Shown one piece after another: positions 31,048 through 39,734 of a stretch of DNA of 64,000 bases (positions are counted from its first letter, which is position 1; each line of letters starts with the position of its first letter). The translations under genes and the position numbers were made by a program. Below the pieces are notes generated by a model. That model made no database searches. It saw only the letters and a list, made by a program, of their open reading frames with translations, and had not been told where the DNA came from. The stretch covers positions 25,032-89,031 of the forward strand of contig VFZL01000014.1 of assembly GCA_016871175.1 (NCBI GenBank), written 5' to 3'. The stretch comes from Acidimicrobiia bacterium (GTDB taxonomy: Bacteria; Acidobacteriota; Vicinamibacteria; Vicinamibacterales; CAVVIG01).

Positions 31048-31680
31048 CTACGTGAGCCCTTGCGTGAACCGCACTTCGACGAGCAGTCGTCGAAACGTCC
31101 AACCGGCCACGGCCGCCACTGACATCTGCGTCGGGCGCAGCAAGTCTGGCGCCCCGTACGCCAGAAATTGGACCGCGCAGATATTGGTGGCTGGATTCCC
31201 GACCCGCAGACTCGGGTCCGAACTCTTCGCGTCCTCGCCGACCTTGAAGCCGAGGACAGGCCCCGCGGCAGCGTAGAAGCGACTGAAACCTCCTGTGGGG
31301 ATGGTCGCACGCGCCAACGCCACGGCGTCGACGTAGTCCCTTCTGAAAGAGAGCGTGACGTTCTCGTACGGCTGCAGGTCCACTGCATGCTGCCGCCGCG
31401 AGTACAGGAGCTCGCCTTGCACGCCGAACCATCCGGCGATCGGCGCAGCCACGAACACGCCGGCGGTGCCGTTGATGCCAGCTTGCGAATCGACCCTCGC
31501 ATGCGGGAACAACGGGTGACAACAAAGCACCCAATCGTAGTAATCAGCGACCTCGCTCACGGAGGACGACGTGATGCCGGCCTTAGCGCCCCATTGGACC
31601 GACTGCGCGTCGCTCCGCCCCGCGGTCCACACCACGATCGCCACAGCGGCGATTGAAGTCCGAATCACGTCCGTGTTCAT
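31048..31680 (-). CDS. outer-membrane beta-barrel domain protein (porin/OmpW-like), putative
   Basis: Start MNTDVIRTSIAAVAIVVWTAGRSDAQS (ATG 31680). It shows an alternating beta-strand pattern (GVFVAAPIAGWFGVQGELLYSRR...). The upstream part of the track ORF is not protein-like. Confidence 0.55.
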   Translation of the reverse strand: MNTDVIRTSIAAVAIVVWTAGRSDAQSVQWGAKAGITSSSVSEVADYYDWVLCCHPLFPHARVDSQAGINGTAGVFVAAPIAGWFGVQGELLYSRRQHAVDLQPYENVTLSFRRDYVDAVALARATIPTGGFSRFYAAAGPVLGFKVGEDAKSSDPSLRVGNPATNICAVQFLAYGAPDLLRPTQMSVAAVAGWTFRRLLVEVRFTQGLT

Positions 31681-31861
31681 GCTCGCTAACCCTAGATCGC
31701 TTGCGGTCTGCGGTCTGGCCTGCTGCTCGCTGGCCTGTTCGCACCCTACTTCATATCGGCGCTGAATGAACAGTGGACGATTCGCACGAAACGTGGACGA
31801 CTCCCAGCGCACCAGCGAGTGGACCGGCGATCCGCCAAGCGGAGCGGTTCGGGGAGGGCCC

Positions 31862-33103
31862 ATGATGGAGAGACTGATCGCCGTCGCGATGCTCGTCGCG
31901 ACCGCCGCAGCGCTCGCCGCGCAGATGGCACCGAGCGTCACGCGCTTCTGGATCCTGGACGTCGGGGCTATCACCGGCGCCACCGAGCCGTCGCGCGTCA
32001 ATAACAGCGGCGCGATGATCTGGAATTCCGGCGGACACGCCTTCGTGTTCCAGAACTGCCAGTCGCGCGACATCGGACACCTCGGCGGCGGTCGAACCGT
32101 GGCCTGGGCCATTGGGCCCGACGGCAGCGTGGTTGACCGGTCGCTGAATGCCAGCGGAAGGTGGCGGGCTTTCCGCTATGCCGGCGGCGTGATGAAAGAT
32201 CTCGGCGGCGGCGCCTCCAGCACCCTCATCCAGGAGGAGGCGACCGCGACCAATTTCTGGGGCGACGTCGCGGGCGTCGAGTCGGTGGGCGCGACCAACC
32301 TCAGCCCGACCGCGGTGCGCTATCAGGATGGCGGTGCCTATGGAATGGCCTTCGCGTCGCTGCCGCCCGCCGGATTTGTTCGCGTCCAGCACGTGGTCGA
32401 TATGAACGACAGCCGCATGGTACTCGGCGCGGTCACCATCAGCGGCGCGATTACGACGTTCATCTCCAACAACCTTGGCTACCAGTGGACCACCGTCAAC
32501 GGTGTGCCTGGTCGGGAGTTCTCCACGTTTCCCAGCGCGATGAACCGTGTCGGGCACGTTACCGGGACTGCTGGCCAGGGCGTCGTCCGTGCCTTTCTGT
32601 CGCGTGATCCGACGCTTCCGGCGGCGGACCTCGGCACCCTCGGCGGTCCGATCTCAATCGGAAACGGGATCAACAATTACGACTGGGTGGTCGGTTTGTC
32701 GCCACGGGCCTTCGTTCACGACGGGAGCACGATGCACGACCTGAACGACCGCGTTTGGAACGGCACGGGTTGGGAACTGCGCGAGGCGTTTGACATCAAC
32801 GACTTCGGCGTGATCGTCGGCCAAGGCGTGCTGAACGGCGCGAAGCACGCCTTTATGCTGCTGCCAATGTCGCGCTTTCCGCGGACTCCGCCGTGCCTGG
32901 TGACGCACTCAACTCTAACCATATCTAGGAGTTACAGTTCAGACGACAGCCGATCGTCACATCGCAGGGCGCTGACCTGGTCTTACGTGCATGATGGCCC
33001 CACGGCGTCGCCGGACCCCTCTGATGACGTCGGCCGAACCGGCTCGCAGCATGACGCGTCGCCGTGTGCACCTCGACGTGGGCGCCGTGACTTACATCGA
33101 TGA
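31862..33103 (+). CDS. HAF-family extracellular repeat protein; C-terminal tail doubtful
   Basis: Signal peptide MMERLIAVAMLVATAAALAAQ. HAF-like repeats end in AFDINDFGVIVGQGVLNGAKHAFMLLP. The last roughly 75 codons (32870-33103) are not protein-like and cross a locally AT-richer patch. Confidence 0.6.
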   Translation: MMERLIAVAMLVATAAALAAQMAPSVTRFWILDVGAITGATEPSRVNNSGAMIWNSGGHAFVFQNCQSRDIGHLGGGRTVAWAIGPDGSVVDRSLNASGRWRAFRYAGGVMKDLGGGASSTLIQEEATATNFWGDVAGVESVGATNLSPTAVRYQDGGAYGMAFASLPPAGFVRVQHVVDMNDSRMVLGAVTISGAITTFISNNLGYQWTTVNGVPGREFSTFPSAMNRVGHVTGTAGQGVVRAFLSRDPTLPAADLGTLGGPISIGNGINNYDWVVGLSPRAFVHDGSTMHDLNDRVWNGTGWELREAFDINDFGVIVGQGVLNGAKHAFMLLPMSRFPRTPPCLVTHSTLTISRSYSSDDSRSSHRRALTWSYVHDGPTASPDPSDDVGRTGSQHDASPCAPRRGRRDLHR

Positions 33104-33309: not shown

Positions 33310-33339
33310 AAAAACGCCGACGGGCGCTGCGCGCCCGTC
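33310..33339 (-). terminator. GC-rich hairpin plus T-tract downstream of the corrected NLR stop (intrinsic terminator and/or DGR-type target hairpin)
   Basis: The minus strand reads GACGGGCGC-gca-GCGCCCGTC-ggcg-TTTTT (9-bp perfect stem 33319-33339, T-run 33310-33314). Confidence 0.6.
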
Positions 33340-33391
33340 AGAGCACAGTGGATCAGCAGTCCAGTGATCAGCGCTATCAGTGAACAGCCGT

Positions 33392-33510
33392 TCAACGGAT
33401 GGGGGAGACACACACCACACGAAACCCGATGAGGCTGCCCCGGTCGACGGGGTCGTAGTTGCCGCGGGACGTCGCGCGCGCTGTCCCGAATGTAGCTCCA
33501 AGACCCGCCG
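33392..33510 (-). other. putative DGR variable-region-like 3' end of the FGE-sulfatase domain
   Basis: In the corrected frame this reads GGSWSYIRDSAR..TSRGNYDPVDRGSLIGFRVVCVSPIR*. 18 of 23 codons after GGSW are NNC (ggc aac tac gac / gtc gac / ggc agc ctc atc). That is the pattern expected from AAC-templated adenine mutagenesis. No matching full template repeat is present in the window. Confidence 0.4.
33398..33431 (-). repeat. copy A of a roughly 35-nt direct repeat (3' end of the NLR coding sequence)
   Basis: The exact 24-mer GGGAGACACACACCACACGAAACC (plus strand, 33403-33426) recurs at 37627-37650. Flanks extend the match to about 35 nt with one mismatch and one 1-nt indel. Confidence 0.9.
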
Positions 33511-36500
33511 CGCAACACCCGGCGCACCCCTTCCAGGTCTGCATTCTCGCGACCATCCTTCGCGTCGTATCGGTACCGCTGGTACGCCGAGCTGGTCCAC
33601 TCCCATACGTTGCCTGCCATGTCGGCAATGCCGTCGGGCGTCTCGCCGTCCGGGAAGATGCCGACTGGGGTCGTACCGCGCACGTGGCTTTCGAACGTGT
33701 TGCAGTGAGTGGCCTCGAACATGTTGCCCCAGGGGTACACGCGGGATCTTCTGAAGGGGTTGAGGCTCACCTGGCTCCCACGCGCGGCGCTCTCCCACTC
33801 CGCTTCCGTCGGGAGCCGCCACGCCTGGCCGGTTTGCGCCGACAACCACGCGCAATAGGCCCGCGCCTCGTGCCAGCACACACCGACCACAGGTTGCGAC
33901 GGGTGGTTGAACGCCGGGTCGTTCCACTGAGCGGGCTGCGTGCGGCGTCCCGCTGGGTACCACTTTTCGAGAAGCTCCTCGAAGGCCGCATCGTTCATCC
34001 GTGCGATGACCTGAAAGCCTTCAGCCTGAGCACTTGTGATGCGACCTTGCCGCTGAAACTCAGGGATGCGATCGAAATGCTCCTGATACAGCTTTCGGTT
34101 TTCGCGCTGTTGCGACTTCGGTCCGTCAGCGGTGCTCTCGCCGCGACGCCAACGCCGCGCGGCTTCTGTCTGCCACCATCGGTCGTCTTCATACCCGCCG
34201 GCCTGCATGAAGAGGCTCCACTCAGCATTGGTCACCGGGAAGCGCGCGATCGCGAAGGCGCCGAGAGACACGTCGTGCGCAGGTCGCTCATCCTCCGGGC
34301 CATCGTCGCGGCCAATGCGATACACGCCAGGAGACACCGCCACGAGCGGTGGCTGCAGATAGTCACCGTGAGGACCGTGTTGGCGCGCGAAGCGAGGATC
34401 GCCGAGTTCGGCCAGAGCCCGGGCCGCAGCGATGCGCGCGAGCAGATCGGCCTCTGGGTCGCGGCTCCGGACCAGCAGATCGCGCGTGAGGGTGCTGCGG
34501 CACACCTCCGAGATCCGCACGTCGGGCTGCGCGGCGCATCGCCCGGCGAGCGGGAGATTGACGGTCATCACCGCGTGGACGAACGAATCGGCGGTGGCCG
34601 ACGCGTGGCCCGAGGCACCATCAGCTGCCGCCATGGGCGAAGCGAGCATGAAGGTGTCCTCCCAGCCAGTTTGAGGCGCCGGCGGGAGTGGGTCGTTGTC
34701 GCTCTCGAACCGCGGCGGCGGCAGCTGCTGCACTCGCCACGGCGTCGCGACGAGCTGCGCGCGATCGGCGAGCGACGACGGCGCCGTAGCGGCGATCGCC
34801 CGTGCGGCGAAATACTCCTGTAGCAGCTGATGGACGAACAGCACCTCGTCGCGCGCACGGTCGTCGTCGAGCACCTGCAACGCGACGCCGGCCTCGAGCA
34901 GCCTGTCGGGCGCGGAGCTGCCGAGGAGGACCCGCGCGAGGTCAAGCGGCACGCGCACTTGCGCGCCCTCGCCGGCCGTCCGCTGCTCCTGCATCCCGAC
35001 GGCGAGCGACGACAACGCGGGCACGAGCGGCCCACGCGCGGGCACATCATACGCGTCGCGCCACGTGGCGTTCACCAGGCGCGCGTGCTCGCGCGCATCG
35101 AAGAGCACGCCCGGCTCGAAGAGCGGATGCTGGGCACGCACCTCACGGTCGAGCGCCTGCCGGAGGAATCTCGTAAAGAGCGCCGCGCGGCCTGGCGGCA
35201 GTGCCCCGTCGGGCTCCGCCTCCGCGACCAGCATCTTGAGATAGAACGGCGGTCGAAAGAGATCGAGTTGCGGCGTGCCCTTCACGTTCCGCCACATCGC
35301 GTCGCCGTGGTCGGGGCTGCACACCAAGAGAAACGACTCGACTTGTTCATCGGACAACCGTTCGATGCGCACGTGCGGCACGGAGAGCTCTGCCGTGGAG
35401 AGCGGCTCGCTATAGTCCAGACTTCGGCACGAGATCACGACGCGCGTGCCCGGCGCGCGTCGTACGACATCGGCAACCAGCCCTCGCCAGAGGCTGACGC
35501 GCTCGCGGTAGTCCTCGCCGCTCGAGTGGGGCATCTCATTGAGAGCGTCGAGCAACAGCACCAATCGCCCGGAGCGTAGCACCACATCAAACGCTGGCAG
35601 GTGCGGGAACTCACGGGACTACTGCGCGGCGAGCCACGCGTCCGGTGTGGGCACGCCTTCACTGGGTGACGCCGCACGATGGCTGCCAAGCCGGACGAAC
35701 ATGGTCCAGCCTCAGGTTCCCGCCGATTCACCTAACGCCGCTGCGGCCAGGTCCAACTCAAGGCGCCGCAGGAGCGTGCTTTTACCGCTCCCAGGAGGGC
35801 CGAGCACGACGATGGCCGGCGCCGTCTCGGCGACGGCGGTGAGCACGTCGCGGAGGTCGTCGAACGACTCGGGTCGGACCTGCCAGCGCGCGCCGTCCGC
35901 GTCGCGGCCCTGGTCGACCAGGAGCGTCAGGCGGGTGAAGCGCTTATCGAGCGCGAACTGCGGCTGTGACCACGCGGCGATGCGATGCAGGCAGAATTCC
36001 TCGTGCGTCCGTGGCGCATGCCGGAGGATGCGGGCCAGGATCTCGTCGGGTGTGCCGGCCGCGACCTCTGCCGCCTCGGGTGGGGACGCGACCCGCTCCC
36101 GCAGCACAGCGAGCGCCTCTAACGTGGCGGCGTCCACGGGCGGCCGAGGACGGTCGTTCAGACTCCAACCGTCGCGCAGCACCAGTCGACAGAGGCCCTC
36201 GAGCGAGTCAAAGGCTGCCCAGTGCTTCCCCGAGGCCTTGATCTCCGCGACGAACGCACGTTGCTGTGACGCCTCGACCTCGGCTTGCGCCGATGGGTGG
36301 GTGCGCAGGAATTGATCGGAGGCGAGGTAGACGTACATCGGTTTCGGCTCAGCACGCTGCCCGTCGAGCCGTTCCCCACGTGCGAAGCCGTACTCCCACT
36401 GCGTGTAGGACCGTGGAGGCGCCCCCTCGGGCACCGCGTCGCCACTCGCTTCGAACCCGTAGGCGTCGCCGACGAGGGCAATCACACGGTCGCAGCCCGC

Positions 36501-36649
36501 CACGTACTCCTCGAGCCGTTCGAGGAGCGTCCGTGGCCCGGTCTGAAAATCCTCCTGGACCTTGACCTCGCAGCCGATGGCGGCGAGGTCGCTGCGTAAG
36601 GCGTCGCGGCACGCCTTGAACTGGGCGGTGACGGCGGACAGGAACACTC

Positions 36650-37120
36650 TCATCGACGCGCCCGAAAGCGTATGCCAAACCAGGCTACCTCGAACAGGTG
36701 CGCGCCTAAGCCCCACGTGTCGCCGTACCGGACATGAGCGAGCCACCCCTGGACCGAGGCGTCGAGCGCCGCGAAGCTGACGTGGCCCGCGTGATACGCG
36801 CCCACGCGGCTCCGTAGGCGTCGAGTGGCCGCACGAACCTTGCGGGCTTTGACACGCCGGTGCGTGGGGAACACCACGAACCCAAGCCATGGAATGCCGT
36901 TGGCGACCGGCTGCACCTGGGCGGCCGACTCGTGCAGCGTGAGTCGCAGACGAGCGAGTCGTTCGATGATGGCGCGCTTCCAGCCCCACAGCGTGCGCGC
37001 GTCGTCGCCGAAGAGGCAGAAGTCATCCACGTATCTGACGTAGGCGCGGCAACCCAGCTGCCGTGTCACGAACTGGTCGAACGAGTGCGTGGTGAAGGAG
37101 GTGAAGTGGTGGCCGATGAG
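36650..37120 (-). pseudogene. reverse transcriptase C-terminal fragment (DGR-type), N-terminal motifs missing
   Basis: ...[27 protein letters not shown] (YxDD at 37019-37042), then [34 protein letters not shown]...[17 protein letters not shown]. About 157 aa are recognisable. Upstream residues of the 330-aa track ORF are antisense to the avd-like gene. The stop overlaps the NLR ATG (ATGA 36650-36653). Confidence 0.75.
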
Positions 37121-37450
37121 ATGGTGATCTTCACGCGCTGTTTCGATCTGCTGACGTGGCTCTTGCCCAAGGTGGACACGTTTCCGCGCGCACACCGTTT
37201 TACCGTGACGAAGCGCCTCATGGACGCTGCGCTCGACCTGCAAGAGACACTGATCGAGGCGCAAAGCCAACGCGGCCAGCCCCGGCTCGAGGCGCTGCGG
37301 GTCGCCGACGCGGCACTCGCCAGGCTGCGTCTGTACTTGAGATTGGCGCATCGATGGCAGTGGATGAGCGTCGGGCAGTATGCCCACGTCAGCGCAGTGG
37401 TGGCTGAGATTGGACGTCTGCTGGGCGGGTGGCTGAAGCAGGCCACATGA
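37121..37450 (+). CDS. avd: four-helix-bundle protein, Avd-like (DGR accessory variability determinant family)
   Basis: [48 protein letters not shown]...[37 protein letters not shown] matches the FPK..RF.L..R pattern of the four-helix-bundle/Avd family. An alternative start is GTG 37109, 7 nt after AAGGAGGTG (37093-37101). Confidence 0.8.
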
Positions 37451-37455
37451 AAGGC

Positions 37456-37491
37456 GGAACGCCTTGAGGCGCGGCGCCCGAAAGGCGTTCC
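37456..37491 (+). terminator. hairpin immediately after the avd-like stop (possible intrinsic terminator)
   Basis: GGAACGCCTT (37456-37465) pairs perfectly with AAGGCGTTCC (37482-37491). The loop is GC-rich and 16 nt long, followed by tgttgtgta. Confidence 0.5.
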
Positions 37492-37621
37492 TGTTGTGTA
37501 TGCGCCCGACGCGCGCGCTGCTGAACGCGCGGCGTGCGGACGGGACGTGCCTGCGCCATCCTGGCTCGTCACCTCGGCCCCCAACCGTGGTCGGGACGCA
37601 ATGCCGGTCTACGCGACGATC

Positions 37622-37656
37622 GATGTGGGAGACACACACCACACGAAACCTCGATG
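37622..37656 (-). repeat. copy B of the roughly 35-nt direct repeat (candidate residual template-repeat 3' end)
   Basis: Non-coding position between the avd-like gene and DUF2971. On the minus strand it reads catcgAGGTTTCGTGTGGTGTGTGTCTCCCAcatc, versus copy A catcgGGTTTCGTGTGGTGTGTGTCTCCCCcatc. The single substitution is A in copy B and C in copy A, and copy B has one extra A. Confidence 0.85.
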
Positions 37657-37678
37657 GCGAGCCCTTGGCTACCCGAAA

Positions 37679-38389
37679 ATGGAAAGCGAGACGATCACGC
37701 TACCGCCTCCGGGAGACTTTCGTCGCGTTTACCACATGATGAAGGCGAAATGGGCGCTCGACGCTGTCGAAGACCAACGTCTCAGGGTCTCCAGGTTCGC
37801 TGACCTCAACGACCCCTTCGAGCTGTTCCCGGTCAATCGCCACACTCACGCCGCCCGAAAAGCCTCGAAGGCATTTGCTCGATATTTCTGGGGCAGGCGT
37901 GGCCTTCTGTCCTTCGGTGGCGACTGGTCAAGTCCGGTCATGTGGAGTCACTACGCTGAAAACCATCGTGGCATCTGCCTGGGGCTCGACGTCCGCAGAG
38001 ATAGCCTGGAGCAGGTCTGCTACGAAGCGGAACGTCTGCGCTTCACATTTGACGAACCCTTCGATCCTGCCGCATGGACCGACGATACGTTCCGAACCTT
38101 CGCCTGTACCAAAGGCCAAGACTGGTCCTACGAGAACGAGTTTCGAAGGCTTATCGATTTGTCGAAGGTGGTGTCCGAACCACCGGACTACTTCATTCCC
38201 TTCGACGATGACATGCGTTTGGCGGAAGTGATCATTGGTGAGCGGTGCGAAGCGCCTCTTGCCCCGACCCGTGAACGCGTTTGCGCGACAGCGCCTTCGG
38301 CCGTGACGTTCAAAGCCCGCCTCGCCTACCGATCGTTTCGCGTGGTTCTGAACGGTCGCACGCGGCCACCTGACTCGCCGCAGGGATAG
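37679..38389 (+). CDS. DUF2971 family protein
   Basis: [49 protein letters not shown]...[19 protein letters not shown] matches the DUF2971 pattern (LR.S....lNDP.E ... mWshYa..h.G.c.g.d). Confidence 0.8.
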
Positions 38390-39679: not shown

Positions 39680-39734
39680 GCAAGCTGCACGAGACGCACG
39701 GGTGCGTCAGTTCCTCCTTCGCACGGATGCTGGC

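Follow-up and report, generated by a model that had tools for sequence, protein, structure and literature searches.

Is the run of C-ending codons at the end of an FGE-sulfatase gene on this contig the variable region (VR) of a DGR, and, if so, is it still being diversified? The question was raised by an initial annotation of the window, by which we mean the whole 64-kb stretch of DNA analysed here, out of a 105.6 kb NCBI contig. That annotation was made from the letters alone, and it described 33392-33510 as a VR-like region in which most codons after a conserved GGSW motif have the form NNC, as adenine-specific mutagenesis of AAC codons in a template repeat (TR) would produce. The coordinates of all features discussed below are collected in Table 1.

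The flagged stretch crosses a frameshift and is enriched in NNC codons

Read from 33510 to 33392 on the minus strand, the flagged stretch runs from RGGSW to a TGA stop, and its coordinates check out. It forms the 3' end of a long ORF (35585->33186, minus strand) whose product has an FGE-sulfatase domain. The frame of this ORF contains RVLRGGSWSYIRDSAR, and the main frame reads through RVLRGGSWSYIRDSARDVPRQ and on to 33186. The other frame, that of an ORF at 33628->33392 (minus strand), reads TSRGNYDPVDRGSLIGFRVVCVSPIR followed by a stop, which is the canonical end of an FGE domain. The frame break was located in a (GC)n run (33473-33481), and the "corrected frame" used in the initial annotation proved to be real, with the RGGSW side and the GFR side lying in the frames of the two ORFs.

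When codons are counted across this frameshift, the interval from W to GFR contains 18 NNC codons out of 23, in full agreement with the claim. A count kept within a single frame gives 15 of 23, which seems to speak against the claim, and it was set aside in favour of the count across the frameshift. With the local third-position C frequency of 0.45 (0.40-0.50 in local genes) the binomial p is 1.2e-3, and at least 18 NNC codons were reached by 5 of 2617 background 23-codon windows drawn from six local genes. In the core of the stretch (TCC..ATC, 33469-33428), 13 of 14 codons are NNC (p=2.5e-4), a density found in none of the 2371 background 14-codon windows from local genes. The enrichment is thus significant against the local background; as the annotation had itself cautioned, however, such a signal is moderate and, in a genome of 66% GC, it is not decisive alone. 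The scaffold on which these codons are laid out was found as well, in the form W-xxx-x-xx-AR-...-R-xxxx-P-xx-R-xxx-I-GFR.

Table 1. Features of the DGR locus in the window, and contigs of other assemblies that cover it
Feature	Coordinates in the window	Strand	Remarks
Intrinsic terminator hairpin	33317..33341	-	11 pairs and a T-run, 53 nt past the corrected stop
Original stop TGA, corrected frame	33392..33394	-	tails of homologs end there
Target pseudogene, DUF4062 - P-loop NTPase - FGE/CLec	33392..36653	-	one continuous frame with two stops
VR	33398..33525	-	homologous to TRs of related DGRs; codes for the FGE/CLec domain's C-terminal end
VR 3' end, conserved, IMH-like, GGTTTCGTGTGGTGTGTGTCTCCCCCATC	33398..33426	-	VR-type CCCCCA
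Diversified codon blocks	33431..33497	-	AGC TAC ATT / GAC AGC / GGC AAC TAC GAC / GTC GAC / GGC AGC CTC
(GC)n run with 2-nt deletion	33473..33481	-	frameshift inside the VR
Second in-frame stop, TAG	35619..35621	-	context WLAAQ*SREF, between Walker A and B; region identical in L011, L012 and L013
In-frame TGA	35712..35714	-	between Walker A and Walker B; also in L011, L012 and L013
DGR RT, C-terminal fragment	36650..37123	-	YVDD motif and thumb; stop overlaps the target start (ATGA)
avd, intact	37124..37450	+	divergent from RT; Pfam bAvd 3e-20
Conserved structured spacer	37451..37621	-	directly 3' of the TR; nucleotide blocks conserved in five loci
DUF2971 gene	37601..38389	+	abuts the TR breakpoint, outside the DGR; Pfam DUF2971 3.3e-7
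TR remnant, last ~39 nt	37622..37660	-	TR-type end CCCACATC; 94% match to the VR 3' end
Contig L001, Logan SRR7053297	39827-35879		no differences
Contig L011, Logan SRR7990526, 9.9 kb	39827-29900		SNP at 31323
Contig L013, Logan SRR16108670	37339-35327		no differences
Contig L006, JGI 3300020193	34257-32846		SNP at 32992
Contig L012, JGI 3300020193	39748-34254		SNP at 39733

The stretch diverges from related template repeats at adenines

The VR aligns over its full length to the TRs and VRs of four related loci (L003, L004, L007 and L008, described below). Its diversified blocks, separated by the invariant scaffold codons R, A-R, R, P and R, fall on AAC, AAT and CAC codons of the four related TRs. 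These TRs are about 70% identical and serve as proxies, being those of relatives and not the window element's own. In these heterologous proxies, the columns with A in all four (n=20) occupy codon positions 1-2 only, so that diversified codons take the form NNC, in keeping with the AAC-template reading of the initial annotation. At these 20 columns the window VR keeps A at 7 and differs at 13, whereas at the 24 non-A columns shared by the four TRs it agrees at 23 and differs at 1. This divergence is adenine-specific (Fisher p=1.7e-5), and the alignment to the TRs of related DGRs, which had been proposed as a check, thus came out on the side of the proposal. All 13 related TR and VR sequences are 2 nt longer at the (GC)n run, hence the window VR carries a 2-nt deletion; tblastn of a relative's target switches frame at this same run.

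Variation among homologous tails (n=74, 50-66% identical) follows the same layout. The columns with more than 3 bits of entropy correspond to SYI, DS, GNYD, D and SL of the window tail, and of their neighbours V (2.67 bits) and G (3.0 bits) lie just under the 3-bit line. Between the variable columns, which are rich in N/D/S/Y/G/H, stand near-invariant W, A-R, R, P, R and G-F-R, and the hypervariable positions match the NNC blocks. A lack of NNC enrichment and an unsuitable pattern of tail variation were the two outcomes that the initial annotation had named as counting against it; both checks were run, and neither went against it.

For the 3' end, an alignment of 15 sequences was used (TRs, VRs, the window VR and a remnant at 37.6 kb). 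TRs have TC(C/T)CACA (4/4) and VRs have TC(C/T)CCCA (10/10), the diagnostic base being A versus C. The flagged stretch is of the VR form (CCCCCA) and the 37.6 kb remnant is of the TR form (CCCACA), with 29 nt common to both; a fixed VR/TR difference in a shared 3' element (IMH / IMH* of DGRs) is present at this locus. As in other DGRs, the VR lies at the C-terminus of a CLec domain, here FGE-type, with variable AAC-type positions 1-2.

avd and remnants of RT and TR lie upstream of the target

The proposal of a DGR variable region on an FGE/lectin-fold scaffold gains further support from Avd, an RT fragment and a TR remnant 3.6-4.2 kb upstream. The RT fragment matches residues 195-317 of bRT, the 328-aa RT of the Bordetella phage DGR (8ub7, E=3.7e-11), and residues 206-349 of the L004 RT (63% identity), and it comprises the C-terminal 40% of RT, i.e., its last ~145 residues. 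In tblastn with a full-length relative's RT as query, residues 1-205 of the L004 RT found no match anywhere in the 64-kb window. These absent residues include LPIGNLTSQ of the relatives' RTs, which is the (I/L)GxxxSQ motif 4 of DGRs, and the fragment lacks the full RT motif set. Pfam RVT_1 gave no match to the fragment at E<=0.01, so that PDB and homolog searches were needed for its identity; the homologs found were 714 RTs.

The avd product scored 91.7 bits with NCBIfam DivGenRetAVD (cutoff 80), over profile positions 3-104 of 104, and is an Avd by this measure. We considered an inversion that broke the cassette, since avd is opposite to RT, and rejected it: avd is divergent from RT in every relative with avd (its orientation is the same in L002, L003, L004 and L007). 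The window thus has the arrangement usual in this lineage rather than a rearranged one.

A BLAST search of the region against the window returned one other copy of the last ~35 nt of the VR, at 37622-37656, in the same orientation and with 94% identity. This TR remnant is followed by the spacer, as relatives' TRs are, unlike their VRs. Over the 171 nt between the remnant and the avd stop, the nucleotide sequence is conserved with that found downstream of the TR in L003, L004, L007 and L008, and RNAalifold gave a common multi-hairpin fold of 47 pairs, 15 of them with compensatory changes. By analogy with the Bordetella phage, 37451..37621 probably represents the RNA spacer of this DGR lineage; an Rfam search of 32.5-39 kb, spacer included, gave no match. 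The interval between TR and avd is ~170-230 nt across distant hosts (the window, L003, L004, L007 and L008).

Homology to TRs ends at ~37660, and the sequence 5' of there is unrelated. An adenine-tolerant scan of both strands over 64 kb found no template repeat; the window holds no TR/VR pair with adenine-only mismatches, and of the TR only the 39-nt 3' remnant. The DUF2971 gene that abuts the breakpoint has a GC content of 0.593 versus 0.662 for the window, which suggests a tie to the loss of the 5' part of the TR. This gene may mark an insertion or replacement that took away this part together with any upstream target. A search for mobile-element footprints at the two breakpoints of the window gave short chance-level repeats only, and a tRNA scan for a clue to an integration site found none.

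The target gene is a pseudogene

Pfam searches of the target gave DUF4062 (TIR-like, at the N-terminus; 7.4e-11), FGE-sulfatase (PF03781; 2.8e-49, 168.5 bits vs a cutoff of 23.3; domain at about 34260-33392) and weak AAA_16/NACHT. The ORF with DUF4062 and Walker A shares its frame with the FGE ORF, so both belong to one target gene, 36653->33392. Walker A (GPPGSGKS) and a Walker B-like motif (LLLDALNE) are visible. The NTPase domain is split by the two stops, and its fragment upstream of the stop scored 30.0 bits with AAA_16 (cutoff 32.6) and 18.9 with NACHT (cutoff 26.7). PDB relatives of the C-terminal domain are FGE-fold proteins. The strong terminator falls within the spurious frameshifted extension of the ORF and, given its distance from the corrected stop, it marks the original end of the gene.

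The NCBI model of the DUF4062 ORF (MBM3771527.1) has 392 aa, compared with 313 aa here (window 35712-36653, minus strand), as it is extended upstream across the RT fragment, so that neither the RT remnant nor the pseudogene state is apparent from the public annotation. Convergent with the target lies a 445-aa ORF (31766-33103, plus strand) with no Pfam match. The gene calls of another assembly place a 412-aa gene on the opposite strand of this interval (L011 6725-7963).

Related loci show the native layout and further RT breaks

The relatives are the genomic contexts of RT-fragment homologs, 55-70% identical across the matches listed. Their native layout is target 1 (VR1) - TR - spacer - avd (opposite strand) - RT - target 2 (opposite strand, VR2), and the 37.6 kb repeat of the window occupies the position of their TR. 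Target 1 of the relatives consists of TIR or DUF4062, NACHT/nSTAND1 and FGE, and their RT has ~360 aa with LPIGNLTSQ. TR/VR sets were mapped in L003, L004, L007 and L008; with the exception of L003 VR2, TR->VR mismatches in these four amount to 15, 18, 19, 16, 15, 16 and 12 at A, and to 0-1 at other bases.

Several of these RTs are themselves broken. L009 retains residues 163-349 only (L009:2594-3247) and L010 residues 194-349 only (L010:6911-7378), both without avd and TR, and the L004 RT has an in-frame stop. In L002 (7815-7920) and L003 (5600-5746) RT is split after YPGDD (~residue 190) by an insert of 110-150 nt with a perfect 12-bp inverted repeat (GGGAGCGCCGGC...GCCGGCGCTCCC), a duplicated GDD and a MITE/REP-like look; despite this insert, the TR/VR pairs of both loci have clean A-only mismatches. 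In L008 (6135-6457) avd homology is spread over three reading frames, and RT homology over two. Long-read indel error is the more likely cause of these split frames, rather than biology, which calls for caution in judging "decay" from single MAGs.

The break points of RT come from unrelated hosts; they lie at residue 206 in the window, 194 in L010, 163 in L009 and ~190 in L002/L003 (the MITE-like insert), and the frame of L007/L008 breaks at ~147-157. One could read the loss or interruption at residues ~145-206 as a position-biased off-switch, by which mobile elements shut down hypermutation time and again and freeze the VRs of STAND-sensor DGRs, and not as random decay, but we regard this as very unlikely. 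The best 120 of the 714 RT-fragment homologs include none longer than 276 aa, and ascertainment bias (a C-terminal query, with short matches picked) together with long-read indel errors explains most of the clustering.

A related VR was also seen in the Vicinamibacterales MAG CAWJOG010000010.1 (L005:1598-4173), where a NACHT-FGE target, split into two ORFs, comes after a kinase gene. The 3' end of this VR (~40 nt) is identical to that of the window, while the rest upstream is ~67% identical, which shows constraint on the VR 3' element at the nucleotide level. No avd, RT or TR was found within 4 kb, and it may be another orphan or eroded VR. A scan for TR/VR ends in a species-representative genome collection, to which the source genome does not belong, matched only the L005 VR.

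The same lesions are present in other assemblies

Five contigs, which come from at least four datasets, hardly differ from the window (Table 1). The three SNPs among them all lie outside the DGR parts. In L006 and L011 the VR is identical to that of the window and has the same 2-nt deletion; both stops are present in L011, L012 and L013, and the truncated RT in every contig that covers RT. L001 was rejected as independent confirmation, as it is 100% identical and so lends assembly support only. L006, L011 and L012, each with an SNP of its own, are better controls. The genes next to the locus are full length (GGT, profile positions 2-511 of 512; CoA-transferase, 1-366 of 366). Taken with the recurrence of the same lesions in these contigs, this indicates damage specific to the DGR locus and no artefact of assembly.

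At the consensus level, no VR allele differences were found between the window, L006 and L011 despite the SNPs elsewhere, although these are consensus assemblies of perhaps one clonal population (3 SNPs in the ~20 kb compared), from which low-frequency variants would escape. Since an intact TR would erase the 2-nt deletion through homing, the persistence of the deletion speaks against any homing after it arose. The identity as a VR that was first proposed therefore stands, but for a former variable region and not for one that varies today: its TR is deleted, the element has a truncated RT and a pseudogene for a target, and independent assemblies agree on one VR sequence.

A frozen relic is the best explanation

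Other readings of these data have to be weighed. The NNC run could be ordinary codon bias of a GC-rich genome in a conventional FGE-sulfatase enzyme with no DGR history. The local third-position C frequency is compatible with this, and 18/23 alone (p~1e-3) does occur in the background, but 13/14 never does. Moreover, Avd, the RT fragment, the TR remnant and the spacer adjoin, the divergence from four TRs is adenine-specific and the NNC blocks match the family's hypervariable columns. Codon bias, already refuted by genomic context and TR alignments, is left with virtually no probability. It is also extremely unlikely that the frameshift and the stops are sequencing or assembly artefacts and that target and VR are intact in the organism. 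Hypervariable regions and GC repeats are indeed error-prone in assemblies, and the frameshifts of L007 and L008 resemble long-read indel errors. However, the same deletion occurs in L006 (JGI) and L011 (Logan) and the same stops in three contigs, these contigs come from different runs and assemblers, the flanking genes have full-length profile coverage, and the truncation of RT and the loss of the TR are structural, hence beyond base errors. The repeat at 37.6 kb might instead be the VR tail of a second, lost target gene, and an upstream target could well have existed, given that relatives have two targets flanking the cassette. Yet its diagnostic base is A, the TR form (4/4 TRs vs 0/10 VRs), it precedes the conserved TR spacer, whereas VRs run into a stop codon and then unrelated sequence, and it lies directly upstream of the reversed avd, which is the TR position in relatives; we see only the slightest chance for a lost target here.

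There is a better case, though still a very unlikely one, for an eroded redundant paralog whose VR is rewritten in trans by an intact sister DGR (TR end GGTTTCGTGTGGTGTGTGTCTCCCACATC) elsewhere in the genome. Rewriting of this kind has been reported at RT-less and TR-less loci of Thiohalocapsa PB-PSB1, where eight of nine DGRs are diversified in nature (PMC10907252). In addition, the recognition element at the VR 3' end is undamaged, its nucleotide sequence is conserved even in the Vicinamibacterales MAG L005, and the 64 kb cover only part of the genome. Against this, all assemblies that reach the VR show the same sequence for it, the 2-nt deletion persists although homing would repair it, and with two nonsense codons in the target diversification would bring no benefit at the protein level. 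Furthermore, among the best 120 of 714 matches, the fragment itself aside, no RT homolog exceeds 67% identity, in a database that includes the NCBI proteins of the MAG.

We thus consider it very probable that the flagged stretch is the VR of a DGR that is no longer functional, i.e., a frozen relic. By the Bordetella phage paradigm and the intact relatives, the ancestral element would have had an AAC-rich TR upstream of a divergent avd and an RT of ~360 aa, and it would have worked by mutagenic retrohoming. RT and Avd would have reverse-transcribed the RNA of the TR and the structured spacer with misincorporation opposite adenines, and the cDNA, guided by the conserved 3' element, would have replaced the VR. 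About 14 codons would have been rewritten in this way at AAC-type positions 1-2, hence NNC, on what would be the ligand-binding face of an FGE/C-type-lectin fold. The diversified protein, a DUF4062 - P-loop (STAND-like) NTPase, is a putative NLR-like sensor. In the course of decay, a deletion or replacement took all of the TR except its last ~39 nt, RT lost residues 1-205, and the target gained two nonsense codons and, within the VR, the 2-nt deletion. The present NNC pattern would then be the frozen last state of hypermutation.

No new mechanism is revealed by this locus. It adds one more case of erosion of a STAND-sensor DGR, by TR deletion, RT truncation and target pseudogenisation, with avd, the spacer and the VR 3' element persisting. 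It also shows that the codon cue alone, NNC runs on a GGSW...GFR scaffold, can correctly flag the VR of a DGR without a template. This is useful for orphan or fossil VRs, which DGR finders based on TR/VR pairs miss by design.

Comparison with known systems

The closest known systems are the STAND-sensor DGRs of RT clade 5, especially 5D (Roux et al./Doré et al. 2024, PMC10907252), e.g., DGR 3 and DGR 6 of Thiohalocapsa PB-PSB1. As in these, the target combines an effector-like N-terminus (DUF4062/TIR), a P-loop/STAND NTPase and a single C-terminal CLec (FGE-type) that carries the VR. It is common for clade 5D loci to possess two single-CLec targets in which an nSTAND1/NACHT NTPase is central (PMC10907252), and the closest RT relatives, with two flanking single-CLec STAND targets, match this description; the window RT is likened to the clade by architecture and not by phylogeny. 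Compared with STAND-sensor DGRs, the window lacks a TR and keeps only the last ~145 residues of RT and a pseudogene as target. The only target left is located on the RT strand, downstream of RT. The host is labelled Acidimicrobiia by NCBI. In Thiohalocapsa, MITE-like arrays and transposons have taken the place of RT genes and of a TR (PMC10907252), and the palindromic MITE-like insert of L002 and L003 resembles this erosion. A literature search for degraded or orphan DGRs found nothing relevant. With erosion documented in PMC10907252, we regard the window locus as a previously undescribed but ordinary, decayed case of the known STAND-sensor DGR kind.

With the DGR of Bordetella phage BPP-1 (Mtd/Avd/TR/bRT) the window shares homologous RT and Avd. 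Both follow one logic: the TR is rich in AAC, changes in the VR are adenine-specific, and the conserved 3' element has distinct VR and TR versions (IMH vs IMH*). Unlike in BPP-1, avd is on the opposite strand, between the TR spacer and RT, and in place of the phage tail-fibre protein Mtd the target is a cytoplasmic-type NTPase fused to an FGE-type CLec. The element itself is chromosomal and inactive.

The VR scaffold ends an FGE-type fold, as it does in TvpA of Treponema denticola (2y3c; sequence match E=2.7e-7), but TvpA is a lipoprotein without an NTPase module, and the window domain is closer in sequence to FGE-fold proteins that are not DGR targets (ToxD kinase 7spq, PvdO, SUMF2) than to TvpA. 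With formylglycine-generating enzymes, EgtB and PvdO it shares the Pfam domain and the fold family. Unlike them, it scores far under the cutoff with all NCBIfam enzyme equivalogs (e.g., EgtB, 118 bits vs 360), is fused to an NTPase and carries the VR of a DGR.
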